Source of the DNA: an uncultured virus (IMG/VR IMGVR_UViG_3300020219_000015)
Lineage: Duplodnaviria > Heunggongvirae > Uroviricota > Caudoviricetes
IMG/VR virus record: IMGVR_UViG_3300020219_000015
Length of the DNA: 64,000 bases
Reading direction: 5' to 3' (one strand)
Each line of letters begins with the position of its first letter. Within the stretch, counting starts at the first letter, position 1. A program made the position numbers and the translations under genes. Below are positions 23,726 to 47,529 of the stretch, piece by piece. A model generated the notes under the pieces. It did not search any database. It saw nothing but the letters and a program-made list of their open reading frames with translations, and was not told the origin of the DNA.

Positions 23726-26700
23726 CTATTTTCTAGTCTGTATAGATTGGAAGTTCTTGATTGCCATCACTGGATCCATGGTAGTTCCTGTTATACCTAC
23801 AGTTTTGGCTAAGTGATTCCAGAACTTAGCTGATTCTTCTTTCTGCCATTGATAAGGACCTACATCTCTTTTGTAATAAGCTGCTTCATTACCTACAGCT
23901 GCATTAGTTAAATCCTGAGCCATATTAGTATAAGCTGCTATAGTAGGACCTAGCATTACTGATTTCCAGTCTAGTGCTTGAACATATTCTTTTAAACCCA
24001 AACCTGGTATTGGTAACCATTGTTGGTTCTCAGCTCTTATCTGCATTAATAGATTAAGTGATTGATTAGATAGAAATCCAGATACTTCAAAAGGATGATT
24101 GGGATCTTCTACTCCCGGAAAAGGGAGTGCCCCTGATTTAGCCCTGAGTTTCTCATATCTGTCTTTATCATCTGAATCCCAATCAAAGAATAGATTAGCT
24201 ATTAATGTCATACCTATTAGCTGACCTACTTCTACAAACATTCTAGTTACTGCTCTCTTCTCTCTTGGTGATAACCACTGAGCTCCTTTTCCTGCAGTAG
24301 AAAGAGTCTTCCAAAAAGCAGATAAAGCATCTAAATAGAATCCCCGGGTATTTTCTCCTAGACCCACATTAACTCTCTCTGGTGCCCATCTATTAGCTGC
24401 CATAGCAGGAAGATATCTTCTCATGAAAGCAATCATTCTATAGACTAGAAATCTAGAAGCTAATGGTGAATCAAATTTAGAAAATGCACCATTTAGATTG
24501 TTGTTTACTGTCTGAACTAGTGTTCTGAAGTCTGTATATTGTTTACCTCCTATATTCCAAGATGGATCTATCCCGGGCTTTACAGTTAACTGACCATCTA
24601 CTAATTGCCATGCATCTATATATGATATCTCTTTAGTAGAGCCATCTGGTTGAGTTTGATTGATCTTCTGATGATACATCATTCCTCCAAAAAGACCCAG
24701 AGTTGCATTTAACTCTGTCCACTTTCTTGGAGAATATAACCAGCTCATATTAACTGTATCTTTAAATAAAGATCTAGATATAGACTGGCCATATGTTTCT
24801 TGAAACCTAGTAGATGATGGATCAAATATTTCAACTAACTGAATATCTAGCCTCTTAGGAGCATGCTTATATATTTGAAATGATATCTGTAAAGATACTT
24901 TTCCAGACCATGCTATACCTTGATGATAGGTAATAGGATTAAGATATCTTCCTGCAGATGCTTCTATCATATTCTGAACCATAGCTGAGAAAGAGTTCTT
25001 CAGTGCTGATGGTATATTCATAGCAAAGAATCCAAAGGCTGCTGACTTAAATAAAGTTCCAGTAGCTGCTTCTAATCCTTTGGCATCTTTAAACCAGCCG
25101 GCATTAGTCTGGCCATGGAATTCTCTTTCTATAAGAGCAGTAGCTACTTGTTCTCTAACTGATCTGCCTTTTCTTGTAATATATGTTCTAACACCTCTTT
25201 GAAGGAGATTATCTTTATTAACTTTGGTCATGTCTTTAACTCCTTGTTCAGTAAGTATAGACTGAAGGGCCTTAGCCATGGGATTCATTTCAATCAACTT
25301 CTTTTGTCTTTCACCGGATAACATGTACCTCATCATAGATTGGGTAACATCTAATGATACCTGATCTAGATCTAGTTTATATAAACCGGCAATTGGAATA
25401 CTTGATAGTTCATTATCAAACATATCAGCTTTAACCAGAGTAAACTTATCCTGCCAGTTTTGACCTTCTTCAAAGTCATCTTCAGAGTGCTTGAAATAAC
25501 TTTTAACCTTATCCCACCAACTAGTAATAGCACTTCTTGCCCCATTAGGTCTTTGAAGTATCTCTAAGTTATGTGGTCTAAATCTAGGTATATCATAATA
25601 TAATCTGCTACTAGATACTTTATCTGATTGAGTGACTATATGAAATTCTTTGATCTTCTCCATAGCTTTGAACAGCTTTGGATTTTCTTTCTCAAGATCA
25701 AAATAGTCTTGATTGATATATCTATTATCCGGTGCTCCTTGAGATTTAGATTTTGGTAAGAAGTTTCCTCTCTTGCCTAAGTTATCCACAGTTTTTCCTA
25801 CTATTCTAGCTGTCTTCCATTCATCCTTTACTGCTCTTGTGAAATACTTCAAAGTGGGTACTCCCTTTATTCTTTCTATAGTATTGCCGACATCATCTTT
25901 TAGATCCGTAGTCTCAATAAATCTGGTATCATTAGGTTTAACCACATTCCATATATGAAGTCTCTCCCAGGTAGGTTCTGATTCCTGAGTCTGAGGATTG
26001 TATTTGTTCTTTCTGATGTGATTTTTTTCAAACCAGGTTTTAAAATCTTCACTTTGAGAAAGTAGAGTATTGATAATATGATCTGATATAGTTGCATCTG
26101 CAGACTTCTTATCTATGATCCTGGAACCAGTTTCTAAAAATAGAGTATTGGTATCTAATTTAGTAAGATAATTATTAAATATATCTACATAATAATCTGT
26201 TGCTTCTTTGTGTTGTAACTCTGCTAATTCTGCAAAGAGGGCATTTAGTTCAGCTTTCTCAAACTTATTAAGGCCCAGTCTATCTTTCTTAGATAGTAAC
26301 TCATTCATTAGTTCTCTATCTTCTGGAGATAGTTTTTCACCAGTCTTAATCTTTTCAAAGAACTGACCTAGTTCATTCATCTCTAATGTAGTGAGACCAC
26401 TAAATCCTGCAAAGACTTCTCTTGCTTTATTGATTTGTTCTTGTCTTTCTTTAACCAGAGCTATTCTGCCTTCTGACATAGATGATCCTTGTGGCTGACC
26501 ATCCTGATCTCTAAATCCGGAGATAGCTTCATTGATATCATTCCATGCCTGAGTTATATCTACTTGGTTTTTTATATTAGAAGGAAGTTTAGCCATGATA
26601 GGCTGTATCTTATCAAAGATCTCCTTTCTTAATAAATAAAAATCTGGTTTAATAATAGTTCTGGTATTTTTATCTATCCAGTCTTGTCTGGTATTCTGAA

Positions 26701-29449
26701 ACTGTAAGCTGTCTCTTGGAGTGCCTTTGTCTACTAGTTGTTGCTCAAAGTTGGCCAGTGCATTCTGAAATACCCCGGGTCTTTCTTTCCACTCATAGAA
26801 ATCCCATGAGACCTCTCTGTGTTGTTTTAATATATTAACTTTCTCAAGTTCTCTACCTGATTTCTTATTTCCATTAAGATCTATTGAAGAATATAATTGT
26901 CTGTATTCTCTCCAGAGTTGGTCTAACTGTTCTGTTGCATTATACTCATCTAATTCATCATTAACAGTCTCATTTACTTCTCTGACTTTGTTTAGTAATT
27001 CTGCTCTCTCTTGTGCTGCTTCTGCTCCAATAGGACTCTCAAACAAAATCTCTCTATCATAAAATTCTTCTTTATATTCCTGATGAAAGAATTGTCTTAG
27101 ATGTTTTTTGTAAGCTATTCTTAGTTCAGATAGTTTAGAATAATCTTTAGTCTTGTTAGCACTAGCTTGTTCTTTATCTATCTCATCTACTAGTTTAGCC
27201 AACTCATACCGGTAATCTTTAAATGGATTAAGAAAAGTATAAACTTGTTTCTGAGTAAAGTTTCCTTGATCATCCTGACCACCTATATTATCAATAAATG
27301 TAATAGACTTTCCTAGTTCAGCAACATTACTTGGATTATATCCTGCTTCTTTTAGTAAAGGCCCTACTTCTTTAACAAAGTTATTATACTTGATCTGGGC
27401 TTTATTCTCAACCTCAGTCATATTATTTTTAACAAATAATGAAAAGCCGGCTATAATAGGATCTTTACTATAGATAGGTCCTTCAAGGAATCCATTGAAT
27501 GCTGCAGCATCTCCTAATTCTCCATTTAGTAATTGCTCTAGTTTTTCTGGAGTGATCTTTACTTCCTCATATCTTTTTTTGTGACCATCTATTACTATTT
27601 TAGATGCTCCCTTCTTTTCAAGATGAGATATCAACTCTGTATAGTTCTCATCTATCTTAGCTGCAGTATCTTTAACAGTGGTCCATAGAATATCCCTAAC
27701 CCCCTTTTTATTTACGTCTTTAACTATTTTATCTCCTACATTTAGTTGAGCTTGTATAGATGTTAGTAATTTATATAATGGATTATTAACTTCTATTCCA
27801 CTTTGATTAAGTTCATTAATACCTTCAGCTGTGTATTTTTTCCAGTAGTCTATAAATTTATTATAGTAATTGATCTTATGTAAGTTGTCTACACTATCCA
27901 AGTTCTTAGATACATTCTCAAGTTCAGTAATCATATTCTTAGCAATAAACTCTAGTCTGAATAAACTAGATGTCATATTACTCATATGAGAGTTTACATA
28001 ATTGAAATCATCTTTAAGCTTTTCTATATCCTTAATTAGGGTAGTTTTATAAGTAGATAAGTTACTCTTGATTTCAGCTAACTGATTTCTACCAAACTGA
28101 TCCTTCAGGATGTCTAGCATTCCCTTGTAATCTTTATTAGATATAAGACTATCTAATTGTTGAGATACTCCGGCTGATAATTTATCAGTAAGACTTTGAA
28201 GTGTTGTATCCTCTAGTTTCTTTAGAGTATCTATAAATTCTTTTTGATCTCTGGCATAAGCTACTACATCATTTTGGTTAATAAGCTCAGTATCTATTTG
28301 GAAACTGTCGTTTACTAACATCTTTCCTAACTGATCTAGACTAGTATTAACATCTAGATTTTCTACTTTTACTTTACCAAATACTTTTCTTAGCATTTGT
28401 TTAATAGAGTAAAGAATATTCTTAATAGTATCTATAAATCCTTTTGATTCGGGAATAGAGTTTAACTGATTTTTAGCAGATAACTGAAGTGATCTTACTA
28501 TAACTTCTTCTTTATATAAATCATCAGTTTTAGCTAACTCAGGATATAGATCATTTACAGTAGCTATAATAGTAGCCCCTTCTGAAGTAGTTAATACTTT
28601 ATTATATAAGTTATTAAATAGTTCTGGATTTTGTTTAGATATAGCTCTAACTAAAGGATGGCCGAATTCATGGAGTACTATATCTGTAGTTAATCTATTA
28701 TCAATAAAATAAACTTTAGCTCCTATATAAAATGCCGGTTCTCCATTCCAAGGAGTTCTAGCATCTTTAGTAAGCATTTCTGCTTCTTGCTCAGATATGA
28801 TATGATAGTCTACACCTAACAGTGTAGCTAATCTTTGAGCTATTTTATTAGCTATTTCTACTGCCCAGGCATTGTTAACCTCTATAGGATCTAGTTCAAT
28901 AGGATCCTTTGGAATCATAGGATCATTTTCTTCATACTCTATGGGATCACTTGAAGTAACAGGTTCCCTATAAAACATAGAAGCTTGAGTTCCTGTATTA
29001 GGTCTTTGACTTGGTACAGGTTCGGCTACTCTTTCATTTAGAACTACCTTATAGATTCTTCTTCCACCTGCTCCTGTTTTCTGTTCTGTTATTGGTTTTA
29101 TCTCAGCTATCTTATAGCCATACTCTCTATAAAGTTGGTTAACTACTTTTTGAGCAGCTGCATAACCATGTTGTTTCACAAATAATATTCCATTCTTTTT
29201 AGATATTCCTCCAGAGTCTACTAATCTTTTCTCTAGAACATTCTCTTGTTTTTGTAATACTGGCCTTGGAATAGATATACTATTGACAACTGTAGTTCCT
29301 GTAATAGGATCTCTTTTAGCTAATACTTCTTCTGGAGTTCTGATCTCTCCATTATACTCCATAAAGTCTCTATAGGCTTCATGTTCACCTACAACATTTA
29401 CAAGATCTTTCCACTCCTTTAAATTTTTGTTAGGGCAAATTAAACTCAT
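23726..29449 (-). CDS. Giant virion ejection protein (1907 aa) with a zincin-like domain
   Basis: HEFGH...EE motif, largely helical, adjacent to the virion RNAP. Confidence 0.8.
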   Translation of the reverse strand: MSLICPNKNLKEWKDLVNVVGEHEAYRDFMEYNGEIRTPEEVLAKRDPITGTTVVNSISIPRPVLQKQENVLEKRLVDSGGISKKNGILFVKQHGYAAAQKVVNQLYREYGYKIAEIKPITEQKTGAGGRRIYKVVLNERVAEPVPSQRPNTGTQASMFYREPVTSSDPIEYEENDPMIPKDPIELDPIEVNNAWAVEIANKIAQRLATLLGVDYHIISEQEAEMLTKDARTPWNGEPAFYIGAKVYFIDNRLTTDIVLHEFGHPLVRAISKQNPELFNNLYNKVLTTSEGATIIATVNDLYPELAKTDDLYKEEVIVRSLQLSAKNQLNSIPESKGFIDTIKNILYSIKQMLRKVFGKVKVENLDVNTSLDQLGKMLVNDSFQIDTELINQNDVVAYARDQKEFIDTLKKLEDTTLQSLTDKLSAGVSQQLDSLISNKDYKGMLDILKDQFGRNQLAEIKSNLSTYKTTLIKDIEKLKDDFNYVNSHMSNMTSSLFRLEFIAKNMITELENVSKNLDSVDNLHKINYYNKFIDYWKKYTAEGINELNQSGIEVNNPLYKLLTSIQAQLNVGDKIVKDVNKKGVRDILWTTVKDTAAKIDENYTELISHLEKKGASKIVIDGHKKRYEEVKITPEKLEQLLNGELGDAAAFNGFLEGPIYSKDPIIAGFSLFVKNNMTEVENKAQIKYNNFVKEVGPLLKEAGYNPSNVAELGKSITFIDNIGGQDDQGNFTQKQVYTFLNPFKDYRYELAKLVDEIDKEQASANKTKDYSKLSELRIAYKKHLRQFFHQEYKEEFYDREILFESPIGAEAAQERAELLNKVREVNETVNDELDEYNATEQLDQLWREYRQLYSSIDLNGNKKSGRELEKVNILKQHREVSWDFYEWKERPGVFQNALANFEQQLVDKGTPRDSLQFQNTRQDWIDKNTRTIIKPDFYLLRKEIFDKIQPIMAKLPSNIKNQVDITQAWNDINEAISGFRDQDGQPQGSSMSEGRIALVKERQEQINKAREVFAGFSGLTTLEMNELGQFFEKIKTGEKLSPEDRELMNELLSKKDRLGLNKFEKAELNALFAELAELQHKEATDYYVDIFNNYLTKLDTNTLFLETGSRIIDKKSADATISDHIINTLLSQSEDFKTWFEKNHIRKNKYNPQTQESEPTWERLHIWNVVKPNDTRFIETTDLKDDVGNTIERIKGVPTLKYFTRAVKDEWKTARIVGKTVDNLGKRGNFLPKSKSQGAPDNRYINQDYFDLEKENPKLFKAMEKIKEFHIVTQSDKVSSSRLYYDIPRFRPHNLEILQRPNGARSAITSWWDKVKSYFKHSEDDFEEGQNWQDKFTLVKADMFDNELSSIPIAGLYKLDLDQVSLDVTQSMMRYMLSGERQKKLIEMNPMAKALQSILTEQGVKDMTKVNKDNLLQRGVRTYITRKGRSVREQVATALIEREFHGQTNAGWFKDAKGLEAATGTLFKSAAFGFFAMNIPSALKNSFSAMVQNMIEASAGRYLNPITYHQGIAWSGKVSLQISFQIYKHAPKRLDIQLVEIFDPSSTRFQETYGQSISRSLFKDTVNMSWLYSPRKWTELNATLGLFGGMMYHQKINQTQPDGSTKEISYIDAWQLVDGQLTVKPGIDPSWNIGGKQYTDFRTLVQTVNNNLNGAFSKFDSPLASRFLVYRMIAFMRRYLPAMAANRWAPERVNVGLGENTRGFYLDALSAFWKTLSTAGKGAQWLSPREKRAVTRMFVEVGQLIGMTLIANLFFDWDSDDKDRYEKLRAKSGALPFPGVEDPNHPFEVSGFLSNQSLNLLMQIRAENQQWLPIPGLGLKEYVQALDWKSVMLGPTIAAYTNMAQDLTNAAVGNEAAYYKRDVGPYQWQKEESAKFWNHLAKTVGITGTTMDPVMAIKNFQSIQTRK

Positions 29450-29452
29450 AGA

Positions 29453-29593
29453 TTAGAAATTTAAACAATATGTGCAATTAGGATTTACTATATTTTTATT
29501 AATATGCCACCTTTTATGACATGATAGTCCACCTATTCTAGAATTTTTTTTCTTTATTTCTGGTCTTAAAGCTATTATACAATAAATTATCAT
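29453..29593 (-). pseudogene. Internally deleted homing-endonuclease remnant (46 aa)
   Basis: MIIYCI (GIY-YIG-like start) fused to HKRWH...NPNCTYC (Zn-binding C-terminal module). Confidence 0.55.
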
Positions 29594-29603
29594 ATTATTA
29601 AAT

Positions 29604-32600
29604 TTAAAAACCAATACATCGAGACATAAACTCTGTTACTTCCTCATCAGTAACTGGTTGATCTCTTTGTACAAGTTGTCTTCCTTTCGGATTCAAAAGA
29701 AAGTTATTATTTATATATCTAAACTTCTCATATAACTGTTCTGACAAATATAAGAAAGTTTGTTGACCTGGCTTAGGTACAACCTTACCTGGAATCTCTA
29801 TTAGTGTTCCTCTTCCTGATCTTCCTATCATTCCCTGACCATATCCATTTTTATCAAATACAATATCTCTTCCTTGACTCTTAAAGTCTAATAATTGCTG
29901 AATAGCAACATCTATTAGTTTTTTATTTTCTTCAAGAGTTTGATCAGTTAATGCATTTAATACACTTGTTAAAGGAGTTTTCTCTTTACTCTCAGCATAA
30001 GATGTTTTAGTTGGTATACCTAGAGTGAACCCTACTTGAGCCTTCTGCATAATGCCATTAGTGGTCTCAGAACTTTTCTTAGTAGCATCAAGAGTTCTTC
30101 CATATACAAATACTGCCTCGGGATTAGAAGCTATCATATTGATCATAGATTTCTCTGAATAGTCTAATGAATGAAATTCTTTAATTCCTTCTACTCCAGT
30201 TTCTGTAATTGGTACAGTAGGAATAGTTTCCTGAGCTGATCTAACTTTAGCTTCACCTACTGTTTGACCCAGAGTTTGTTGAACAACATAGTTCTTATGT
30301 CTAAAGCTATTTTTAGAGGTATTAAGAAGTATAAACTTTTTATAAAATAGATCTAGTAATACATTATTCATATTCTCTGAATACACCTTAACTGGTTCCT
30401 CCATTATTCTAGTAAACATATCTACCGGTACAAATGAAGTAAGAGCATATTTACCTTTAGCTGATAAGCCTGATTGCATAAAAGCATATACTGGGAATCT
30501 CTTGAAGAAATTGCTTATCCTTTCATTCTCTACTGGATCAGTAGACTTTATAACAGATACATTAGATAGGTTTAATATATTCTCATGAAGAGTATTTAAT
30601 TTATCTCCATCTAGATTTGAGTCTAAACTATAAAGATTTCTTATTCCTTGTTTAGCTATTGAAGTAGCAAGAACTCTGAAAAGTAAATACTCATTTTTTA
30701 AATCAGGATGTGTATCTATAATACTATTATACTCATCAGCATAGCTAGTATCACTATAGAACATCTTCCAGGAATTGAACGTATTATCTAAAGCCTGATT
30801 TCTTAAGAATTGCTCATATGATATTTTCTTTAATCTCTTCTCAAATTCTTCGTGAGTTTCATCTATAAGCTTAGTTATCTTTTTATCAGTAATATTAGTA
30901 GATAATAGTTTTATATAATCTACATTGGTCTTTACTTTATCTGAAGTATACATACTTCTTAAGTATTCTCTTTCAAATACAAAAGACTGGTATTCTTTAG
31001 ATGTAGAGAATGCATTAACATTAACTACAGCTAATCCTGTTTTAGGATCATACTCTGTTATATGATCTTTGAGATTTGAAATACCGGACCAAGCTTTAGT
31101 AGAGAAGTCTTTTTGAAGCTGGGCTTTATCTACATAGATAACATTATTTTTAACAAAGACTCCGTTCTTAAGACTCTTTACAGATTCAACTGGGATACTA
31201 GTATCAACATTAAATCCTTTGTATTCTTTAATATTATTAAGATTAAATGCTTTTACACTATTCTGGAATATAAAACTAACTAAGTCATTTTTGAATTCAG
31301 ATACAAATTTCTCAGGATCATCAAATGTATTCTCTACATCATCTGATATACCTTCTCTAAACTTATTAACAATAAAGTTTTCTACTACTTTATTATTTCT
31401 AAGATTAAATAAAGGATTCCATAGATTGATCATGAACTCCTGTATATTGAAAGAACCTATTGGAGAATTAGTAAGAATATTATTTACTATAGAAGTAGGT
31501 ATCTTACCATCTGCTTTTAGTTGCTCTACTTGTAATTGTCTATTATGGGCCTCAAAAAGTGTAGTTGATCTCTTAGTATCAAAGTTCATTCTAAGCTTAA
31601 TATCTCTAATAGATCTTGACATATCTTCTAGTTCTAGATAATGTAAGAATGCTGCTTGTTCTTCTTCTGTTACAATATGATCAGCTCCTATTTTAGTCTG
31701 TGCTGAATAGGCTCCTATATTATTCTTCAGAGTGTTGAAATCAAAAGCTGAATCTTTATATTTAGATGTCATCTCCCGGGTCAAGTTATAAATATTCTGA
31801 TCCATTGCTTTTCCTCTCAACATAGATTGAGTGAGATTAAAATCAAATCTTGGATCAAGTAATACTGTCTCTTTAGCTTTTCTCCTATAAAAATTAGGAT
31901 GGAAAGGGGCCTTATCTAATGGATCTGCAAAAGTAGATTTAGCTAATCTTTGTTGAGTAACATATTCTCTAACCAATGGCTGGGATACAAAGTATACTGC
32001 ATGCTCAAAAGGAACACCGGCCTGGATTAAAAATAAAAGAACTGGTGCTACTTCTTTATTACCTTGGATATTAAATATCCATGCATCTTTAGCCACATCT
32101 ACCCAGCCATTAATCAACTGAGATATAACATCTGATATTCTATATTGACCATTTGAGTCTAATATATTACCTAATGATATAGCAGGTTTTCCGGAAACAT
32201 CAATAGTGTTATGAGGAAGGTATATATTAAGTGGTCTCTCTTGTAATTTACCATTAGGCATTTTCTTTTCATAGCTAGGGTTAAGATGAGCTCCTATTCT
32301 ATTAAACACAACATTATAAGAGTTATCAACTGCTCCTAAACCTAATGTCTGTTTACCTACGTTATTAGACTGATGTTTATAAAGATTGTATTCTTGTTCT
32401 AATACTCTAGTTCCAGATACCTGAGACTCATTACCTGGGTGTACTCTGGATTTAGGATTATAATCTTGTACCTGATCTTGTAATATATCAGCAACTGGTT
32501 TTACTATATCAGTATTATTTGGCCTGACTAGATTAGTAAAGTTCTGTGGCAGTTCTAAGATCTCTCTCATATTCTGAAGAAGATCATTTTCTACAGCTTT

Positions 32601-35600: not shown

Positions 35601-38600
35601 GAAATTAGAGTACTGGTCTGAGTATCTAGTCTCTAATTCCATTAGTCTTTTCCAATTACCGGCCTCTCCTCTAAGTTCTTGAATATTGCCCATAGCCGGC
35701 TGCTGTAGTTTAAATACATCAGATACTTTGGTTATAGTAAGTCCTCTACTTTGAATGTTAGCAAGAACTGCTCTTATAATATTAGCTTTACCTATATCAT
35801 TAGCTATTCCTTGTTTAATCTCTTTCTTGTCAGATAACTGTACTCCTATTGCTTTAAAGAACTTGAATGCATTTTCTTTAATAGTATTAGCTGGGAAGTC
35901 CTTCAAGATGGTTGGAATATCCAGGTAGTTTATATTATTAGTGTCTTTCTTTATATATGGATTAGCATATGTAATTTGAAATAAATTATCCCATGCCTGG
36001 CCGGCTTTTTTGTAATCAGTAGAGGACTGGCCTATTTTTGAAATATAAGTAGAAGTCCCATCTTCATTTGTGACTTTATCAAGAGTCATCTGAATTAAAG
36101 GAATCCTGGTTTTGTTAAATGCATTCCAGAAGTCAGTCCACATTTTAAACTCAGGCCCAGATATAGTATCAGATGATCCTAGTTTAGATAATAGTTGTTT
36201 GAATACAGGAAAAGTCTCAGCTTCAGATTTGAGTCTTTTCTCCATCACTTCTGGAGAAGAGCTTCCTTCTAAAACTTTAGCTAATCTATTCCATACTACA
36301 TCAAACTCAGCTAATTGATTAACTCCTAGTTTATTCTTTTTAGTATTACCAGAGTTATCTATAGCATTAAGAGATCTAATTAAATATAATACTTGGTTAG
36401 AAGCTAGATCAGTAAGAGAAGTTTCATTACCGTTCTTGTTATAACCTTCTCGTCCCTTAGATGCATCTTCATTTTCTTCTGGAGCTACATCTTCAAACTT
36501 ATCTTCAAGAGATAAGTATTTTGATTTAAGATTATGATAGTTTATTAATCCTTTTCCATTTTCTACTCCTATTGGTTTTTCAGGATCTCCAAAGTTTCTA
36601 ATAGCATAATCTAAAAGATTAATATTCTTCTGGATTTGTTCTTTAAGGAACTGATCAGTAGTTTGATCAAGACTAGATTGAAGATCATTTCTTATATGAG
36701 CTAGCCTGGTTCTGGAGTATTTATAAGCTGTAGATCTATTATTACTACTAGTTACAATAGTAGAAGTAAATCTATTAGTTAAGTCTTTAGTATTTTTAAG
36801 ATCTATTAGTTCTGAAAAAAGAGAATCTATAGTATCTACTAGTAGTCTAGAATCTTCATATGATAAAGACTGAAGAGGCTCTTCAGAAGAAATAGCTTCT
36901 AATCCTTTATTAAGGATATTAAAATTTATATTATCTCCGGAGAAAGTGAATTCATGAAGATCTCCTATTCTTAATTTTTCATATAGATCATTTATAGTAG
37001 AAATAGCATTTTGATTTATAGCTAACTGAGCTACTGTACTATTTCCAAAAAGTGCTTTAAGAAAGTTTAATATCTTTCTAAATAGAGTATTTCTTACTGG
37101 AGTAGTTAATTTCTTTCCATCAGATAACATATAGTTTCTGAAGTCTTCAGCTAAGTATTCTTCTAGCTCTATATTAGAAGCTGATTTGAAAGAAATATTT
37201 TTTCCTTGATAAGTAGTAAATTTTCCGGACTTATTTCTTAGCTCATTATATACTTCTTGTTTTTGGTCTTTAGTTAAAAAGCCTTGAGTGAATCCATGCC
37301 ATGCCTCATGATAAAGATCACTATAGTCTGCTCCTTTGTATAAAGTGATTCCATTTACTGTCCAGGTAGCTACTGCATTAGGATTGGCAGCATTAATCAT
37401 ATTAAACATTACTTCAAAAGGGAAGTGTTTAGATAATGGAGAAGAGTTATACCAAGATCTGGCCTCAGTTATTTGTTCTTCTGTGGCTTTTTTATTGATC
37501 TCTTTTTGACCGGTAGTTTTCTCAAGAGTAGCTAATAAATCATCTATATCTTTCTGTCTTTGATCTGCAACTGATGATTCTACTATTTTAGCTGGAGTAA
37601 CTTCTGGTTTTACTTCTATAGTCTCTTTAGGATTAAGTTTTTCTATTTCACTATCAAGAGGAGAATAATTAAAGTATCCATTAAGAGTTACTATTTTTCC
37701 TTGTTCATTTATAGGAATATTAATTACTGTATGCTCTCCTAAAAAGTCTTTATAGTTTTTATCTGTTGGAATAAGCCGGGTATTTTCCCCTTCTATAGAA
37801 AGAGTAAAGTCCTGGAAGTCTTCCATCCTGGATAAGAATTTTCTATTAATATTTATCTGAGCCCCTACCCATTTAGTATAGATGTCTTTACCATTAGTAT
37901 CTACTGTCTTTACTATAGCTCCTTGATATAATTCTTTCTCCCACTCAGGTTGAGTTCCGTCAATGATCTTTCCTGTAGGTCTGGTGACTATTTCACTAGG
38001 AGATATTCTAGTTAAGTAATCTATTATAGTTTTATTAGCAAGATCTTTATCAGATAGATCCAATGGCACTCCTTTTATAGTTATCTCAAGATTCTGTCCA
38101 TCTTCAGATACCTGAATATTCATTCCTTTGTCAGTTGTCTGAATATAGTTTTTAGCATAGTTTAATTTCTCATATGGAGAAAGTGATACATCTTCTCCAG
38201 AAGGAGCTTTTGCTGTAATATCATTTACTAATAATGATGATACTTTAGTAGCTAGTTCTGCAGTAAACTGTCTTCTCTGTAAATGAATAGGAGTTTCTAT
38301 CCCGGGATAATAAAAGTACACAGCCGTCTTATAAAAGGGCCCTGTATTATCTTCCTGGAATATAGGTTGAAAAGGATGTTCTATTTCAAATAGTAACTTA
38401 GAGAATGCTTGAGGAGCTTTTCTATTCTCCTGAACTAGTCCTTTACTTCCTCCTGTTATAGTACTTCTGATAGTATTATTCTCAGGATCTTTCTTTATAT
38501 ACTCTCTGATTTTATGTATTTGTTCTGTTTGATCATCCTGAATCTTCTTAGCTTCAGTAGCAGTTACTTCTCTATTTAGTATTTTAGAAAGTGATTTAGC

Positions 38601-39539
38601 TGCCTGCTCTGGAGTCTGAATACTTTTAGGATCAGTAAGTGTTCCTTTATCATCAGTTGCCCTCATCATATAATATGATGGTTTTGCTGATTGATCATAA
38701 GAAACTTCTCCGACCTCATTAAAACTAATAGGATTGCCTTCTATATCAGTAAGGGTTAATACTACACCTAGTTTATTATGTTTGTGAAGTCTAGTTTGTT
38801 TTTCTTCTTCGGAGATCCCTGGTTCATTTAACCAAGCTTTTGTTTCTTCATATACTTGATCTATAGGAATTTTACTAGCTGACATTGCAGTTAGATATAC
38901 TCCACCTTGTCTTGTTCCTGGAATATCTAATTTAGAACTATCACCATTAACTAGTGGAGTATATAATTTATCCAGAATAGATCTTAGAGTATTATAATAT
39001 AATTTCTTAGTTGGATCAGGAGTACTGGTCCATGTTTTAACACCGGTCTCAGAATCTATAGTTATGATAGCCTCTTGGCCAGTAGTAGTTAACGGCTGAT
39101 TAGGTTTAGCCTTTTCTCTTTGTTGTTCTAGAGACTTATCTTTTATTTCTTTAGGAATAATAGTATCTGGAGTCTTATTTGCAATCTCTTGAATACTTTT
39201 GATTTGATCTATAATATCTTTATTTAGATCTAAGTATTCAATAGTTTTATCGAAGTTTTTAAAGGTATCTTCAAGATCAACTATCTCAGGATATGCATTC
39301 TTAATCAGAGTTCTTATTTCTTTACTTCTACTTTGAGCTTCTATTATAGAAATAGGAATCATCTGTACATAGTTAATAGCAAGACTATGACTTTTAGTTT
39401 GGTTATATACAACAGAATAAATTCCTTTTGAATAACTTTTAATATCAAAAGGAATATTCTTATTAGCCTGGTTTAATAAATCTGAAGTTACTTTCTTATA
39501 AAGTTTTTCTATTTGCTCTTTTCTTAAAGGACATGCCAT
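29604..39539 (-). CDS. Giant virion RNA polymerase (3311 aa), crAss-like
   Basis: RIPVQG...KSGSDFDIDKL catalytic DxDxD loop, DAQGWIT and KSGSK; N-terminal zincin HEAWH...EEYLAE. Confidence 0.9.
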   Translation of the reverse strand: MACPLRKEQIEKLYKKVTSDLLNQANKNIPFDIKSYSKGIYSVVYNQTKSHSLAINYVQMIPISIIEAQSRSKEIRTLIKNAYPEIVDLEDTFKNFDKTIEYLDLNKDIIDQIKSIQEIANKTPDTIIPKEIKDKSLEQQREKAKPNQPLTTTGQEAIITIDSETGVKTWTSTPDPTKKLYYNTLRSILDKLYTPLVNGDSSKLDIPGTRQGGVYLTAMSASKIPIDQVYEETKAWLNEPGISEEEKQTRLHKHNKLGVVLTLTDIEGNPISFNEVGEVSYDQSAKPSYYMMRATDDKGTLTDPKSIQTPEQAAKSLSKILNREVTATEAKKIQDDQTEQIHKIREYIKKDPENNTIRSTITGGSKGLVQENRKAPQAFSKLLFEIEHPFQPIFQEDNTGPFYKTAVYFYYPGIETPIHLQRRQFTAELATKVSSLLVNDITAKAPSGEDVSLSPYEKLNYAKNYIQTTDKGMNIQVSEDGQNLEITIKGVPLDLSDKDLANKTIIDYLTRISPSEIVTRPTGKIIDGTQPEWEKELYQGAIVKTVDTNGKDIYTKWVGAQININRKFLSRMEDFQDFTLSIEGENTRLIPTDKNYKDFLGEHTVINIPINEQGKIVTLNGYFNYSPLDSEIEKLNPKETIEVKPEVTPAKIVESSVADQRQKDIDDLLATLEKTTGQKEINKKATEEQITEARSWYNSSPLSKHFPFEVMFNMINAANPNAVATWTVNGITLYKGADYSDLYHEAWHGFTQGFLTKDQKQEVYNELRNKSGKFTTYQGKNISFKSASNIELEEYLAEDFRNYMLSDGKKLTTPVRNTLFRKILNFLKALFGNSTVAQLAINQNAISTINDLYEKLRIGDLHEFTFSGDNINFNILNKGLEAISSEEPLQSLSYEDSRLLVDTIDSLFSELIDLKNTKDLTNRFTSTIVTSSNNRSTAYKYSRTRLAHIRNDLQSSLDQTTDQFLKEQIQKNINLLDYAIRNFGDPEKPIGVENGKGLINYHNLKSKYLSLEDKFEDVAPEENEDASKGREGYNKNGNETSLTDLASNQVLYLIRSLNAIDNSGNTKKNKLGVNQLAEFDVVWNRLAKVLEGSSSPEVMEKRLKSEAETFPVFKQLLSKLGSSDTISGPEFKMWTDFWNAFNKTRIPLIQMTLDKVTNEDGTSTYISKIGQSSTDYKKAGQAWDNLFQITYANPYIKKDTNNINYLDIPTILKDFPANTIKENAFKFFKAIGVQLSDKKEIKQGIANDIGKANIIRAVLANIQSRGLTITKVSDVFKLQQPAMGNIQELRGEAGNWKRLMELETRYSDQYSNFSVTNAEGNAQFEHSLNSTLTQMINTINSVKSFDELIALPHMNHLDTERNPYTKSSIWITSLFDMNSPGRPKRKDAKLNLENLSGVQLTIDNEEGTGIASASADEFTKFLMDFHMMIMRGTPELMRAADKGTSLMINLNKLLAPGNKSGKLYIDTEEIIANKTKAIQNLTNIVINYVGSELSRINTMENASELNPIRNVSDYYNRGKEFVLFDDVLSSETKSKLKKLDLPLDTYLKNNTPRAIELRKDLETDITKYFNSLVKSTNDRYTKTKFVANNLITSIKEEANNTNYKAQVLKASSADIVQGALTSFVINQWIHNVETMNFLYGDIALYNMGKEEFHKRNAGVISTGTIYRSDESALRYLNEVIGFGYANSKGIAQDPFQSILNSAVLEDTHTLSVYHDQYKKAIESEIKDRYSKRKDFISGKISKEDLDKEISKAIESALKPYTEMNTGDAQGWITFDSYRAVKTLDNSWTPKQEELYQKIIKGESTRPSEVSRFFPVQKLQYFGPLHTEGLPTIGFHKFSVFPLIPSVIKGTNLEKLHDKLVTENVHYALFKSGSKVSTITKQGVTDPFYSNEQAKVISQEKLTKNPIFIEYLKNQLETASTFKESSIFPTQLRKLIEDGLYENGKPVNDKVEKLVKNYEDNIRKLTEVKKKELLREAGWILDKNGNPKGDLKPLLKFVRKELTRQDLADHQIDFIDIKGNTNQIKHDLSISLSADKIERLLTAIVNKRLIRQKVNGEALIQVSGAGFENLSAFDTNRNLTNPTEGDLKKWGSNDLPTYHQGPDGKTRAMKVKIAMQGQFEKLLQLDEVRDRAYSKSISTTEALNELLKDEPWLNTGTNRQMITMIGVRIPVQGLNSMEFMEIYEFLPKEAGNIIVPPDEIVAKSGSDFDIDKLTVMMPNFRKNEDGKITLTTQYSQKQARTIYEKVKAKRIALEELKDDKGNIIWTNDAIVDKFLTDVFGDLWSRDYTHEELEEILKPYNLHTFEDFYETLNGSKAVENDLLQNMREILELPQNFTNLVRPNNTDIVKPVADILQDQVQDYNPKSRVHPGNESQVSGTRVLEQEYNLYKHQSNNVGKQTLGLGAVDNSYNVVFNRIGAHLNPSYEKKMPNGKLQERPLNIYLPHNTIDVSGKPAISLGNILDSNGQYRISDVISQLINGWVDVAKDAWIFNIQGNKEVAPVLLFLIQAGVPFEHAVYFVSQPLVREYVTQQRLAKSTFADPLDKAPFHPNFYRRKAKETVLLDPRFDFNLTQSMLRGKAMDQNIYNLTREMTSKYKDSAFDFNTLKNNIGAYSAQTKIGADHIVTEEEQAAFLHYLELEDMSRSIRDIKLRMNFDTKRSTTLFEAHNRQLQVEQLKADGKIPTSIVNNILTNSPIGSFNIQEFMINLWNPLFNLRNNKVVENFIVNKFREGISDDVENTFDDPEKFVSEFKNDLVSFIFQNSVKAFNLNNIKEYKGFNVDTSIPVESVKSLKNGVFVKNNVIYVDKAQLQKDFSTKAWSGISNLKDHITEYDPKTGLAVVNVNAFSTSKEYQSFVFEREYLRSMYTSDKVKTNVDYIKLLSTNITDKKITKLIDETHEEFEKRLKKISYEQFLRNQALDNTFNSWKMFYSDTSYADEYNSIIDTHPDLKNEYLLFRVLATSIAKQGIRNLYSLDSNLDGDKLNTLHENILNLSNVSVIKSTDPVENERISNFFKRFPVYAFMQSGLSAKGKYALTSFVPVDMFTRIMEEPVKVYSENMNNVLLDLFYKKFILLNTSKNSFRHKNYVVQQTLGQTVGEAKVRSAQETIPTVPITETGVEGIKEFHSLDYSEKSMINMIASNPEAVFVYGRTLDATKKSSETTNGIMQKAQVGFTLGIPTKTSYAESKEKTPLTSVLNALTDQTLEENKKLIDVAIQQLLDFKSQGRDIVFDKNGYGQGMIGRSGRGTLIEIPGKVVPKPGQQTFLYLSEQLYEKFRYINNNFLLNPKGRQLVQRDQPVTDEEVTEFMSRCIGF

Positions 39540-39556
39540 AGGATAATATTTATTAA

Positions 39557-42500
39557 TTATTCACCACAACCAAGATCTGATAAAAACTCTTCATCATTTT
39601 CTTCTTTAGATTTTTTAGTAGCCTCATCATGGAGTCTATCTACTTCAGATTTATCTTTAAGTAAATCTTCTTCAGCTTTTACATTACTCTTCATCTGAGT
39701 TTTATCTTCAGTAGTAAGATCCGGTGTTAAATCTGCTTCTTCCATTCCTTCATTATATTTAAACTCTATTTCTGATATGGGCTCATAATATACTGTGGCC
39801 CCATTTTCTCCATATCTTACTACTTTAATAGTGTCTTTAGTCTTTCCTACTACTTCACCCAGACCAGTTTTTCCATATCTGGATTTGTCTTTCATGACTA
39901 GGATTTCTCCATCTTTTATATCATCAAAATTAATAGATAAAGCTAACTCTTTCTTTTTATCTTCTATCATTTGGTTAATAAGTTCCCCTGATAAATTCTG
40001 AGCTTTTCTAATAGCCGGAGTAGATAGATCTTCTATTAATTCTCCTTCTAATAATTCTAATTGCTCCATAGTAGTTACATCTTTAAACCTAGCTTCTAGT
40101 GATCTAGTTGGTACAGGAGCAGCTACTATAACTTCTAGTTCAGGCTCTATAATTGGAATAGCTGCTTCTTTAGGTTTAAGCTCTGCTGCTATTTTATCTA
40201 TTTCAGCAAACTTAGATTTATAGATTGCATTTTCTCCTTCAGAGAGTTTCTCATTATTGTTTATTTTCTGAGCTATACTATTCATCCTCTCTGGGGTGAC
40301 TATTCCTTTCTCCTGGAAGTCTAATATTTCTTCATCTCCAACTACTTCAGGAACTGCTTGTATAACCTGAGTAGGTTTTACCGGTTCTTCTGGAGTAACT
40401 ACTTCTTCTGGAACTCTACCTGTTCTAGTATTGAACTCATCTAATATCTTATGTGCAGAAGGAAATCCTATGATCCAGTTTTTAAATCTTAAACTCTTTG
40501 CTATTTGATCATCTGATAAAGTAGCTAGATTTTCTTGTTCTTCTGGTACTAACTTACTATTCTGATCTCTATAAGTGGATATAAGAGTAGCTCTTAGATC
40601 TTCTGGTAGTTGATTAATTGGGGTGGCTATAGTAATACTTGCTGGTCCAGTAGTTATAGTCTCTCCTCCAGGAGTAACAGTAACATTAGTAGTATCTATT
40701 TTAGTAGTAATAAGACCAATTACCTGATCTAGTAATGTACTATCTGTAGATACTTTAAATAATCTTTGAAAGAATTTTTTTACTGAATTTAGATAATCAG
40801 TCCAGGTTGATTTCTGAGTAACTTCATGAGGAATTTCTTTTAGGAAACTCTGGAAAGTATCATTACTTATAGCTTCAGCTGCAAATTCTTTTTCACTTGA
40901 AAGACCATTTAAAGGAGCTTCTCCATATTTGGATTTAGCTTCTTCTGTAGTAGAATACTGCCTTGCTCTTTCTAGAAGAGAAGTAATATCACTCTTAAAT
41001 TGAGGATCAGTATCTATTCCTTCTGTAGTATATTTATGAATTAGTTGATGTAAGATAACATGCTCTATAGGATTGTTACCTGATTTATAATCTACTGAAC
41101 TATATCTGGCATCTATAACTATTCCTGTTTCAGGATTATAACTACCAGGAGAAACTGAGTCTTTCCTAAAGAGGATAACTTCTTCTGGTTTAGTAATAGA
41201 TAATAATCTTCTAGCTAAAGCTTTCTCTCTAAGAGTTGAGTATTTACCGGTGATTATATTTCTGAGTACTCTTGTTGATATAACTTTTGATTCAGTATCT
41301 GCTGAGTTAAACCCATATTCTTTGGCATAATCTTCATAGGTTCTCTGGTCTCCTTTAAATTTTCTTCTAGCAAATGATTCATATCCTGGAGTAGTATCCT
41401 GTGTTTCCGGTATTGGTTTCTCCGTATATTGCTTTCCAGTTGCTTTTTCAAACTGTTCAATAAGATTAAGGATCTGCTTACCTTTTTCTGAATTAAGTGG
41501 AATTTCTCCATGAGGGCTTGTAACACTATAGAATTTAGTTGGAAGTTTATTTGTATCAGTTAGTGATTCTATTTCTTTAGGATCAAAGAATGCTCCTAGT
41601 TTATATAGTTCATTTAAGAACTCATTGTGCTCAGATTTCTTAATAAATTCTTCAAGACCTTCTCTTAAATAGTTTATTCTATTATTGCTAGCTACTGTAG
41701 CAGCTTCAACTGCTCTTGAGTGAGCTTCTCTAAATGTCTCCGGATTAGTTAAGAAGTTTACTGCACTGGCTAATTGTACAGAATCTTCATTGAGTTCATA
41801 GAAATCTTTAAGCTTTCTGAAAGAGTTATTTACATCTTCATCTAATATATGATCATCAGATAGATTAGCTATTGTTTTTATGTATTTAGAATAAGAGTCA
41901 TAAAGTAATTTAGCATGTTCTGCAGAAGCTAGGTCTTCTTCTTGCTCTGGGGTAGCACTAGTTGATCTTGCTTTAATAGCAGATTGGAATCCTATTATAT
42001 CAAGTTTAAGGGCTCTAAGAGATTCTAGTTTAGCTTCTTTCTTTTTGGCTATTGCTTTATCTCCGGCAGTAGTTGATTGTCTATAAGTGGGGATCTCAAG
42101 TTTAAGTGAATTAATCTCATCTTGAATCTGAGTAGGATCAAATAAAAGAGTAAACTCAGATGAAGAGGCTTTAGCTAAAGGCTTACTCTTTACTGCATCT
42201 TGAGTAATATCAGTCATTCTATCTAGAGTTCTATCAAAACTATATCTAGAAAACAAAGCCATTTTCTTAAGCTCATCAAAAGCTTCTCTAGCATGATACT
42301 CTTGTATCTTAGCTGTAGGATCTTTTACTTTAGATGGATCAAATGGATTAACCATTTTCTTTTCTATGGCATCAAATCTATTTCTAAGATAATCTACTTT
42401 ATCAGTAAAACTATCTAGTTTTTGTGCATGAGATGTATCATTTGTCCCTGGCTTTTCTCCAAAGGCTTCTGATAACTCTGCAGGAGACATCTCTTTTAAA

Positions 42501-44470
42501 GACTTAATCTGATCAGTCAGAGAATTGGTTTGTCCGGATTTAAGAAGAGTGTATATATGATTAAATACACTTTCATCTTTAGAGTCTTGAAAAGCTTTCT
42601 GATCATTATCTCCTATAGCCTGGTCAACATGAGCATTAGATTTCTTTTGAAGAACAAAGTTCTTATCTATTGAGCTAATAGCTTTAACATATTTAGCAGG
42701 ATCTTTCATTGTGTCACTGATAGCCTCAGTAACAGAATTTATATATTCTTGTTTGGCATTACTATAACTAGCATATCCTTTAGGATCAAATATCTTTTTA
42801 GTAAGTGTTGGTATTCCCTCAAAGATTGCTTTCTGTGGGCCTTGGAGAATCCCTCCCATTAAAAATCCAGATAAGAAAGTACTTAGTCCTTGTCCTGATA
42901 ACTGAGTATCCAGACTTGCAGAAAAAGAGCTCTTTAAACTAGCTAGGTCCGGATCTTTATAATCTTGCTCATAGTAACTTTTAAATGCTTGGGATATAAC
43001 ATCCTGAGATGTTTCTTGCAACCCTTCTGTTAAGTTAGCTACAGTATATCTTAGTGATCCTTTAAGTAAGTTACCTGGTCTAAATACATTTTTTATTCCC
43101 GGTAAAGAGTACTTATCAACAAACCTGGCTGTTTTAGATAGAGGATCTTTTACTAGAATCTTACTAGCTAGGGCTCCTTCAGCTTCTTCTACAAGAAAGC
43201 TTTCAACTGGTTTGAATCCTCTAAGAGCATTCTTAAATACTATCTTGTTAGAGAAATATATAAGTGGGATATTAGCTAGTGTTGTAGCAAATCCTGCAGC
43301 TTTAGATTGTTCATATATTTTGTTTGCTTCATCTCCTTCAGGAAGTCTGCCATCATTCTGCTCATAAAAATCATTTACTAATTTCTCATTTAGATCTATC
43401 TGTGCTAATCCTCCTTCTAGTTTCGACTCTGAAGTAACTGCATTGATCTCCCGGATATCTCTATACAGAGATCCTACTCCTTTACTCATTTTAGCAAAGT
43501 TGGATAGGTTCTTTAATTCACTGAGACTTCCAACAAATTCTGCAGTTCTGCTTAATGGATTAGCCCACTTGGCTACACCTAAAGCTGTCTGACCAGCATT
43601 AGCCCAACTAAATAATTGTCTGGCTTTATTTACTGAATCAATAGAAGATAGAGCTTTCCTAATATTATTCATTGCAGTAAAACCTTCACTTAATCTTCTT
43701 GGAAGAGAAGTTATATTAGACACTAATCTACCTCCTGTAAGAGGAGCTGCTCCACTCTTTGTAGCTCCTATAATAGCTAGTATAGCTAATTCTTCTAAAG
43801 CTATTTCACCAATCATACCTACAGTGTGAGCTGTACTAGCTCCAAAATTTGTGATCCATCCTGCTGCTCCTTCTCTAGAAGATGACATATTAGCCATCCT
43901 CTTATTCATATCTTCGGAGTGAACCAAATCAGAGTCTAATCCAATGTCATACCACTCACTAAACGTATCTTTAAATCCTAGACCTGCCATTCCTAACCAA
44001 CCTGAAGCCATCCTACCAAAATCTGCAAATCCTGAAGTATTCTCATTGTATACTTTTTCATTATCTCTAAAGGGAGAGAAGCCTAATTTCTTGAATCCTG
44101 AGTGAGAATAGTATCTATCAAAATTCATATTTCTATAACCTGCTCCATAAGAGAAGGTCTTACCATAACCATATTTGTCATTGGCCCATGAATCTGCTTG
44201 CTTGAGATACTGAGCTGCATTTTTAGCAAAGTCTACTGCAGGTGAGGTCTTAACAGAGGGTGCGGGTCCTGTATTGAAGTCTCCAATAATACTGGAGTTA
44301 ATATCAGTATTTATAGGATAGGCTGTCTGGTGGGCTCTATTAAAATTGGCTTGCTGATCTTTGGCTTGTCTTGCTTCTAGTTCTCTTTCTCCTGAAGTTT
44401 TACCAAAAACTTTCTGACCCTCTGTGAGTTCCTCACCAGGTTGAGTAGGGAGTGTTTGTTCTTCTGCCAT
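39557..44470 (-). CDS. Giant virion ejection protein (1637 aa), N-terminal hydrophobic segments and a degenerate zincin
   Basis: EGLQETSQ...FLSGFLMGGIL; HQLIH...KEFAAE. Confidence 0.78.
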   Translation of the reverse strand: MAEEQTLPTQPGEELTEGQKVFGKTSGERELEARQAKDQQANFNRAHQTAYPINTDINSSIIGDFNTGPAPSVKTSPAVDFAKNAAQYLKQADSWANDKYGYGKTFSYGAGYRNMNFDRYYSHSGFKKLGFSPFRDNEKVYNENTSGFADFGRMASGWLGMAGLGFKDTFSEWYDIGLDSDLVHSEDMNKRMANMSSSREGAAGWITNFGASTAHTVGMIGEIALEELAILAIIGATKSGAAPLTGGRLVSNITSLPRRLSEGFTAMNNIRKALSSIDSVNKARQLFSWANAGQTALGVAKWANPLSRTAEFVGSLSELKNLSNFAKMSKGVGSLYRDIREINAVTSESKLEGGLAQIDLNEKLVNDFYEQNDGRLPEGDEANKIYEQSKAAGFATTLANIPLIYFSNKIVFKNALRGFKPVESFLVEEAEGALASKILVKDPLSKTARFVDKYSLPGIKNVFRPGNLLKGSLRYTVANLTEGLQETSQDVISQAFKSYYEQDYKDPDLASLKSSFSASLDTQLSGQGLSTFLSGFLMGGILQGPQKAIFEGIPTLTKKIFDPKGYASYSNAKQEYINSVTEAISDTMKDPAKYVKAISSIDKNFVLQKKSNAHVDQAIGDNDQKAFQDSKDESVFNHIYTLLKSGQTNSLTDQIKSLKEMSPAELSEAFGEKPGTNDTSHAQKLDSFTDKVDYLRNRFDAIEKKMVNPFDPSKVKDPTAKIQEYHAREAFDELKKMALFSRYSFDRTLDRMTDITQDAVKSKPLAKASSSEFTLLFDPTQIQDEINSLKLEIPTYRQSTTAGDKAIAKKKEAKLESLRALKLDIIGFQSAIKARSTSATPEQEEDLASAEHAKLLYDSYSKYIKTIANLSDDHILDEDVNNSFRKLKDFYELNEDSVQLASAVNFLTNPETFREAHSRAVEAATVASNNRINYLREGLEEFIKKSEHNEFLNELYKLGAFFDPKEIESLTDTNKLPTKFYSVTSPHGEIPLNSEKGKQILNLIEQFEKATGKQYTEKPIPETQDTTPGYESFARRKFKGDQRTYEDYAKEYGFNSADTESKVISTRVLRNIITGKYSTLREKALARRLLSITKPEEVILFRKDSVSPGSYNPETGIVIDARYSSVDYKSGNNPIEHVILHQLIHKYTTEGIDTDPQFKSDITSLLERARQYSTTEEAKSKYGEAPLNGLSSEKEFAAEAISNDTFQSFLKEIPHEVTQKSTWTDYLNSVKKFFQRLFKVSTDSTLLDQVIGLITTKIDTTNVTVTPGGETITTGPASITIATPINQLPEDLRATLISTYRDQNSKLVPEEQENLATLSDDQIAKSLRFKNWIIGFPSAHKILDEFNTRTGRVPEEVVTPEEPVKPTQVIQAVPEVVGDEEILDFQEKGIVTPERMNSIAQKINNNEKLSEGENAIYKSKFAEIDKIAAELKPKEAAIPIIEPELEVIVAAPVPTRSLEARFKDVTTMEQLELLEGELIEDLSTPAIRKAQNLSGELINQMIEDKKKELALSINFDDIKDGEILVMKDKSRYGKTGLGEVVGKTKDTIKVVRYGENGATVYYEPISEIEFKYNEGMEEADLTPDLTTEDKTQMKSNVKAEEDLLKDKSEVDRLHDEATKKSKEENDEEFLSDLGCGE

Positions 44471-47400: not shown

Positions 47401-47529
47401 GATCTTGTTATATCCTTGGTTATACTGTGCCTCTTTTCTCTCAAGCCCTGCTTGATAAAAATTTAGATCCGGCTGAAAAGGTTGGATATGTGGTATGTAA
47501 TCGGTAATACCTGGTATATAACTAGCCAT
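44470..47529 (-). CDS. Putative virion cargo/ejection protein (1019 aa)
   Basis: Position in the cargo cluster; contains internal repeats. Confidence 0.72.
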   Translation of the reverse strand: MASYIPGITDYIPHIQPFQPDLNFYQAGLERKEAQYNQGYNKISGIYGSLLNSPMLGSVDNETRDKFFKDIESSIQKVSTLDLSQEQNTDAAYQVFQPLIDDKNIMKNMAWTKNYQNQLTRAEGFRNCVDEKRCGGKWWEGGVRALNYQAEDFAKAADNHNASSMEDPRYTPYINIQEKAIKNAKDMGFDIKSISWSPDGRYIVTQKNGAAMYTPLSEYFLGVFGSDPVAREMYNTQAYLTRKDFMKSNVGVYGSEDAAENFYLNNALSTAERSANINTKRVSDSKSDISAKREIIANKINNSGGLDQDDPLITQYLSFNAQSDVLNTAEEFHKETLNYLDKNVLIGADKKTLRWRIDNAVSNSLLTNDLLHAAKNYADLTSETKIEADPYAKSSYDHALRLQEMHESHLNAIELQKLNWSQRLTYEAAKKELGKTRTGALNNNIWKPAPDKFQGASATADIIDTETELQDKFMEQYGKVNSAQDIYLKKIANNLQSLVDNDPNSAEGKSAANDLYKIFGSDYDRNTNKFRTEDIADGKNYAANRGKIYTYAKDYVNLPVTQQLYTGLYGELKPIEDKVNLDTDLWLTYDKIKKGNLQRLRTYAQSSADVPENKREMFQTLITDKGEVLSREQFATNWANKHATPKSVTEGLSREQFATNWANKTVLSREPFATNWANKHATPKSVTEGLSREQFATNWANKTVLYATSDPKEYTNVYKAAVSDYDDLLDLHAKLYRGNPSVGGKPVIQTWDPSVQLGGIANTFTGGKGTNAVTSHMDGASEDESMMDGIRLYQGYKKSGALAVSYGYGSSELPETDPEAVEVLDRFMADITNGNYKDSDLKRPIGDLTFSGIVLGDPSKVAFHIAPEGNWADQTKYKGTPKTPGITGDKKYREGITVYMDRDKVPPEFMNKFQRGPYDIVINTKPITINDYPDAGSITITKTPQGTITQSGYMQAWDGEKYIKVNAPNFGINSFTSADIYVQQIKYIQKLQHQANEEARSLNTTSKPITNINQLQQQR
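45416..45648. repeat. In-frame 114 bp tandem duplication containing 4 copies of LSRE(Q/P)FATNWANK
   Basis: Units start at 45416 and 45530 and differ by one substitution. Confidence 0.92.

Follow-up and report, generated by a model that had tools for sequence, protein, structure and literature searches.

Three giant cargo genes with four cysteines

The window analysed here is a 64-kb stretch of DNA from an uncultured virus, with three adjacent giant genes on the minus strand whose products we call A, B and C. Some 20 kb may be missing from the contig, a near-identical one being 96 kb long. The phage is crAss-like, judging from its muzzle and ring genes, which lie upstream in the same block (PF25731 and PF25702 above the cut-off, PF24228 below it), and from the match of B to PDB 6VR4. 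The features used below are the following:

39557..44470, minus strand: protein A, 1637 aa, proposed first link, N-end without cysteine; positional counterpart of phi14:2 gp67 and crAss001 gp47
39560..39724, minus strand: last 55 aa of A, helical, amphipathic and acidic, with predicted docking on the RNA polymerase's N-terminal domain
39566..39568, minus strand: Cys1635 of A, junction 1; a C-end cysteine is present in 75/76 A proteins
29604..39539, minus strand: protein B (3311 aa), a virion RNA polymerase of the crAss type, zincin-like in an N-terminal region
39204..39539, minus strand: first 112 aa of B, a helical domain and the predicted docking site (AlphaFold2 pLDDT 93.5)
39531..39533, minus strand: Cys3 of B, junction 1; invariant in 57/57 aligned N-termini
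32910..32924, minus strand: DFDID catalytic motif of the polymerase, residues 2206-2210
29616..29618, minus strand: Cys3308 of B, closing the amphipathic helix TDEEVTEFMSRC, junction 2; 109/112
23726..29449, minus strand: protein C, 1907 aa, gp65/gp49-like, C-end without cysteine; blastp to crAss001 gp49 at E 1e-7, a weak match
29435..29437, minus strand: Cys5 of C within the motif CPN-x4-EWK-x-L, junction 2; 107/107
24185..24241, minus strand: residues 1737-1755 of C, a hydrophobic stretch close to its C-end and a possible inner-membrane anchor
44470..47529, minus strand: upstream cargo gene, 1019 aa, internal Cys128 and Cys134, ends without cysteine

Protein B matched the phi14:2 virion RNA polymerase (6VR4, E 3.8e-29) and, by blastp, a gp66-type polymerase (E 6e-36). 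The pairing of A with gp67 and gp47 is by position: blastp gave no direct match to either, and the profile used to tag A proteins was seeded with the window protein, so it is no independent proof of orthology. None of the three was named above a cut-off by Pfam or PHROGs, and blastn of the window against phages returned no match. In the 154-nt gap separating B from C, a scan for promoters and terminators stayed at chance level. Judging from their homologues, A, B and C are probably virion cargo in this phage; those of phi14:2 and crAss001 were found in virions by mass spectrometry, according to the published text consulted. Intact zincin motifs (HExxH) occur in B (HEAWH at 744) and C (HEFGH at 260), and A has a degenerate HQLIH within the region matching the zincin of gp65. 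Within the clade, B ranges from about 2,900 to 4,900 aa.

A first, sequence-only reading had reported just four cysteines across the three proteins, in DLGCGE at the C-end of A, MACPL and SRCIGF at the two ends of B, and MSLICPN at the N-end of C, with both outer ends free of them. The translation agreed on every point: there are four cysteines in 6,855 aa, at A 1635/1637, B 3 and 3308/3311 and C 5/1907, none at the N-terminus of A or the C-terminus of C, and the count found no further one inside any of the three. The other window ORFs of at least 100 aa that were counted (n=34) hold 154 cysteines in 10,870 aa (1.4%), a rate at which about 97 would be expected here. Given four cysteines, the chance that all fall in 5-residue windows at the inner ends is about 7e-12, a post hoc figure. 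Cysteine is shunned elsewhere in each protein, presumably so that wrong bonds do not form.

The upstream 1019-aa cargo protein lies outside the series, since its ends carry no cysteine. Its Cys128/Cys134 pair (47128-47148, minus strand) recurs at a comparable position in 24 of the clade's 37 upstream cargo genes, is absent as a pair in 13, and probably forms an intrachain disulfide loop; gp28 of the A4 family has a comparable close pair near its C-end. The same gene contains a 114-bp tandem duplication (two copies, 99% match, 45416-45648) that the near-identical copy L001 lacks, either a recent duplication or an assembly artefact. Elsewhere in the window, GIY-YIG (12436-13251) and LAGLIDADG (19687-20499) genes lie among the replication-side ORFs (12150-14410 and 17854-21999, plus strand), and a second GIY-YIG gene follows the muzzle gene (51851-52498). 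These are possible introns or mobile endonucleases.

Terminal cysteines across Crassvirales

We collected 75 IMG/VR loci through the window polymerase (from the best 80 of 191 stretches), 76 through phi14:2 gp66 (from the best 80 of 104) and six named genomes. ORFs were labelled A, B or C by profile, with no use of their cysteine content. The polymerase marker was found in 155/158 loci, which formed 123 clusters at 90% identity; one representative of each was scored, leaving out ORFs below 1,000 aa and cut ends.

Among the complete three-gene modules, 63/66 representatives had cysteine at all four inner ends and at neither outer end, and 47/66 had exactly four cysteines. Counted by protein, A had a C-end cysteine in 75/76 and an N-end one in 0/73, C had an N-end cysteine in 107/107 and a C-end one in 0/106, and proteins with the polymerase marker only had the C-end cysteine in 109/112 and the N-end one in 92/103. 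Outer ends carried none (0/179), and internal cysteine amounted to 0.024% in the scored representatives. The N-end cysteine lay at positions 2-7, mostly 3-5, and the C-end one 0-9 residues before the stop. By these counts the rule is order-wide in Crassvirales, the conservation on which the sequence-only reading had made its case depend. The named phages phi14:2 (gp67 C1797, gp66 C3 and C2179, gp65 C3), crAss001 (gp47 C2339, gp50 C5 and C2404, gp49 C5) and p-crAssphage obey it, and so do eight further named genomes, three of which need a later Met than the annotated start. 

The rule also held with A on the opposite strand, in crAss001 (gp47) and DAC17. Thus, the link follows protein order and not gene order. 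It had first been proposed that the ends join the proteins in the order of their genes: the head-to-tail pairing stands –on conservation, losses at fusions, gains at inserts, predicted docking and the A4 phage, all treated below– while gene order gives way to protein order.

Conservation of this kind might be a by-product of a DNA signal at the junctions, or of relaxed cysteine avoidance at floppy ends, as the genes are often closely packed and TGT makes up 327/388 of the end codons. However, the TGT bias equals that of the genome (142/154), TGC is used 61 times and the offsets vary. Gene gaps run from -11 to 354 nt, the outer ends lack cysteine, and the rule survives with genes on opposite strands. 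This explanation is largely refuted, and we give it an almost negligible probability.

Where genes among the representatives are fused, precisely the two cysteines of that junction are gone. An N-end cysteine was lacking in 11 polymerases, namely nine A+B fusions and two broken ORFs; all nine fusions keep the C-end cysteine, and cr108_1 is also without the N-end one. B+C fusions, p-crAssphage gp44 included, keep the N-end cysteine and lack the C-end one (5/5). The complete triple fusions L150 (5639 aa) and L152 (5520 aa) contain no cysteine at all, nor do three proteins of the triple-fusion type that are cut at the 5' end (L149, L155, L157). 

For the diagnosis of A+B fusions, an A profile was built from other loci; it matched the start of 7/9 of them, as well as that of cr108_1 and of the two complete triple fusions, while L079 (with its relative L136) and L124 were called fusions from length and marker position only. 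A marker profile of the upstream cargo gene proved too weak for this purpose (3/13 hits), and the A profile and sister alignments were used instead. In these alignments, B and C of L101 are found collinearly fused in its sisters L116 and L122, and A and B of L117 in L118 and L135, all with cysteine-free joints. A FastTree tree of 100 tips from 101 clusters gave at least seven changes at the A/B joint and at least three at B/C, with state labels set by the analyst, a midpoint root and backbone support left unassessed. The place of the A/B break also differs: in the clade of the window it precedes the zincin domain by about 700 aa, and in crAss001 it comes just after that domain.

The ends are lost and gained as hetero-pairs, which strongly supports the head-to-tail pairing. 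In another pairing, the polymerase would form a Cys3-Cys3308 link within itself, acting as a redox lock, or each end would bind its own copies in an oligomer. Each protein may be packed in several copies, six for example (PMC10172136), and gp66 is described in its preprint as crystallised in a self-inhibited state. Yet A+B fusions retain only the C-end cysteine of B and the N-end one of C, B+C fusions only the C-end one of A and the N-end one of B, and the co-fold described below supports the C-end of A on the N-end of B. We find such pairings very improbable.

The cysteines could also be handles for ligation, by trans-splicing or transpeptidation, or for attachment to lipid or the portal; in favour of this are the fused polyproteins and the zincin-like domains. 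Still, the paired loss argues against separate anchors. The cysteine lies at positions 2-7 at the N-end and 0-9 residues from the stop at the C-end, and in two loci it is followed by longer tails. The Pfam scan of the window found no intein or Hint-type family, and the end sequences lack the splice-junction motifs of protein splicing. We give this idea scarcely any credence.

Extra genes within the series also carry cysteine at both ends (574 aa in L038, 757 in L032, 307 in L153, 113 in L105 and 871 in L132). The module of 574 aa has a peptide-fused counterpart in six other loci, a region at the start of C or close to it with 47-48% identity, and in L043 both docking ends are absent where this module joins C. 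The 871-aa piece of L132 is the polymerase part after the catalytic motif. In that locus (L132:7370-19364) the polymerase is split after the motif, with a cysteine on each side of the split and a 1161-aa gene between. The 113-aa gene of L105 (L105:22323-22664; Cys 5 and 110) lies just before C, with other genes separating it from the polymerase, and is a candidate minimal adaptor link.

Some loci depart from the usual geometry. The cysteine of A lies 17 residues before the end in L126, and tails of 71 aa (L129) and 287 aa (L132) follow the junction cysteine; since these tails are tolerated, a free C-terminus is not required. Both tails (L129:9491-19371, L132:7370-16679) contain GxSHxxGG and are followed by a gene starting NIEVEGGE or HIEAEGNE, and by eye these motifs resemble those of the 744-aa cargo gene of the window (47623-49857). 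Cysteine avoidance is not universal, as gut lineages have internal cysteines (8 in p-crAssphage gp44, 40 in L151); unfused cysteine-rich polymerases (5-40 cysteines) keep both end cysteines in 6/6. One lineage (L143, L144, L151, L154, L156) has 12-40 cysteines in the polymerase with both end ones kept. 

The polymerase ORF is broken in cr108_1 and bajarodcaudo virus 1 with no cysteine pair at the break; these breaks may be introns, as an endonuclease gene in the second suggests. Inspected by eye, apparent exceptions were frameshifted or broken ORFs (L028, L127, L153) and late Met starts (L151, crAss002, cr110_1, bajarodcaudo virus 1).

Predicted docking at junction 1 and the nature of the proposed bond

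In the clade of the window, the C-ends of A and B are acidic amphipathic helices closing on the cysteine. Their hydrophobic registers differ (-2/-6 in A, -3/-4/-7 in B), and the N-ends of B and C are distinct motifs. In the A helix no residue but the cysteine is near-invariant, and in the B domain none but the cysteine is invariant. This 112-aa N-terminal domain of B was detected in the clade of the window only and, together with the more upstream A/B break, sets the module apart from its relatives.

The last helix of A is predicted to dock on the first domain of the polymerase. Co-folding the last 55 aa of A with residues 1-112 of B gave a score of 0.74, against 0.09 for the best of three controls, a mark reached by 116/157 solved pairs and 2/215 mismatched ones; these benchmark counts are only a rough guide here, since 57-row alignments of our own were used. 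Across runs, at least 97% of the contacts were common, the partner pLDDT was at least 83 and the interface had about 130 contacts. Residues 1-5 of B and 1632-1636 of A, with both cysteines, fall within the predicted interface, and the register, which is antiparallel (12 with 47, 16 with 43), runs toward both. The Cys3-Cys1635 pair is absent from the 25 best pairs, so that its closeness is extrapolated from the helix register. The co-folding that the sequence-only reading had proposed thus supports docking at this junction, without the cysteines listed as a pair. The prediction covers junction 1 only, and split-gene halves can pass such a test through likeness to solved structures. For B 1-112 no solved relative was found by VIA-align (best Z 6.4, rmsd 3.5, 90 aligned) or among PDB sequences (best E 0.035), and a BFVD fold search with its model gave nothing at E 0.001. 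These results do not make the domain a new fold, the VIA-align result being ordinary for helical bundles.

The bond had at first been left as disulfide or metal. Two chains can hold one metal between their cysteine pairs, as in the Rad50 hook and CD4-Lck, and a clamp that bridges the junction with Zn or Fe would need no oxidant to form in the reducing cytoplasm; acidic residues are frequent in the C-terminal helices. An inter-protein zinc clasp, in turn, needs at least two Cys/His ligands per partner. Here each end offers one cysteine with no CXXC, and histidine stays at 9% or below at any scored position near it. A single four-cysteine site also fails, with two cysteines in fused forms and six in inserted ones. 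With a single cysteine per end and no conserved histidine, the disulfide is preferred and the metal bridge is very unlikely. Moreover, the counterpart of this joint in phage A4 was modelled as a disulfide, according to the structural report (PMC12002296).

Proposed disulfide-joined cargo and its alternatives

The closest functional parallel is A4 (Anabaena phage A-4L, Saffermanviridae), where the C-terminal helix of gp27 is reported to insert in gp26 with a Cys1715-Cys5 disulfide seen by cryo-EM (PMC12002296). These are the only cysteines of both proteins (Cys1715 of 1717 in gp27), and the pair is kept in 4/4 relatives examined. Like the window, A4 has adjacent giant ejection genes and single cysteines at the facing ends, and its docked C-terminal helix corresponds to the docking predicted for junction 1. 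Unlike the window, it is described as having one junction, no RNA polymerase and an ordered pentameric pre-ejectosome, and the authors, in the text consulted, treat the bond as stabilisation and not as a substitute for gene fusion (PMC12002296). A phmmer search of A4 gp26-28 against the crass proteins had no hit at E 0.1 and the best profile match was at E 1, leaving room for remote homology. We therefore describe the crass module as working like A4 and do not class it as its homologue.

By descent, the module belongs to the Crassvirales RNA polymerase module (phi14:2 gp67-gp66-gp65, crAss001 gp47-gp50-gp49, p-crAssphage gp45-gp44). In the text consulted, the gp66 preprint notes fusion into a polyprotein and does not use "cysteine" or "disulfide", and PMC5512222 covers the zincin domains with no mention of either. 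Nor did we find a description of a terminal-cysteine linkage of cargo in the open-access Crassvirales literature searched. Other inter-subunit disulfides are reported in crAss001 virions, in the tail and the gp57 dimer (PMC10172136), but they belong to external structural proteins, not to cargo, and are not head-to-tail ends. In the cryo-EM map of that phage the cargo is not resolved (PMC10172136).

By analogy with A4, head-to-tail disulfides very probably exist in Crassvirales cargo. Beyond that, we consider it somewhat likely that, with disulfides locking the docked ends, the three genes amount to a single pseudo-polyprotein that is packaged and ejected in order, and we lean to the same degree toward the disulfides serving as a load-bearing thread. 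A, the polymerase and C would be joined head to tail into a thread of about 780 kDa, with joints that are either peptide bonds or docked helices with a disulfide, the three genes being pieces of one polyprotein. The ends would dock non-covalently in the cytoplasm during assembly, giving equal copies, and the disulfide would form when virions meet oxidant after lysis. It would then keep the series together while the proteins partly unfold in the tail. If the chain goes N-first, the hydrophobic segment toward the far end of C would be arrested in the inner membrane, and thiol reductants of the host cytoplasm would free the polymerase. Such a segment, 121-189 residues before the end, occurs in 76/105 C proteins versus 9/72 A and 16/100 B. 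Thiol oxidase and thioredoxin families were not found among 49 window proteins, a set that does not cover the ORFs at 64-75.6 kb. The link is not needed for catalysis, as recombinant phi14:2 gp66 alone is reported to transcribe single-stranded DNA (gp66 preprint).

Docking and disulfides may, however, only co-package the proteins 1:1:1 and stabilise the assembly before ejection, bearing no load or being broken before tail passage. The comparative data fit this equally well, and sequence cannot separate towing from co-packaging. Besides, the gp27-gp26 bond of A4 is said to stabilise further the contact of a helix with a cleft, within an ordered pre-ejectosome that holds five copies of each protein (PMC12002296). 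On the other hand, a predicted interface of some 130 contacts might suffice for packaging, yet the cysteine stays invariant or nearly so in domain and helix. A thread calls for just such a strict N-to-C polarity and exchangeability with peptide fusion, and the partial unfolding for passage would break a non-covalent docking. We regard a purely static role as rather unlikely. In crAss001, the cargo is reported to have to unfold partly to pass the tail, and the text consulted leaves the order of ejection to packing and unspecified interactions (PMC10172136).

Further observations weigh against the disulfide thread. The breaks of the polymerase ORF in cr108_1 and bajarodcaudo virus 1 carry no cysteine pair, and N4-like phages are reported to eject a polymerase of 3,500 aa with no cysteine. 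Schitoviridae (N4 gp50, DEV gp71) are described with a cysteine-free ejected virion RNA polymerase and a beads-on-a-string model (PMC11445570, PMC13434306). They resemble the window in the giant ejected polymerase and the strong cysteine avoidance, but theirs is one polypeptide of T7-like fold with nothing to stitch, whereas the module here has four conserved cysteines and a crAss-type polymerase.

Taking the disulfide-joined thread one step further, crassvirus cargo could be a reducible polyprotein, an idea of which we are more doubtful than convinced. Peptide bond and disulfide would be interchangeable, and a thread of 0.7-0.9 MDa would be towed, its far end serving as the anchor in the inner membrane, and be cut by host reductants that signal the arrival of the polymerase. 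Modules ending in cysteine would be pluggable, even inside the polymerase (L132).

A single terminal disulfide joint was already known from A4; what would be new is a multi-link chain, spread across the order and interchangeable with gene fusion. For annotation, the terminal-cysteine rule flags true starts, fusions and extra members of the chain. Protein injection may rely on a recurring design, as the comparable joint in an unrelated family of cyanophages suggests. Crassviruses are the most abundant gut phages, and for the question of how their giant cargo is counted into the head and ejected in order, the terminal cysteines offer a candidate answer, with named residues in cultured phages.
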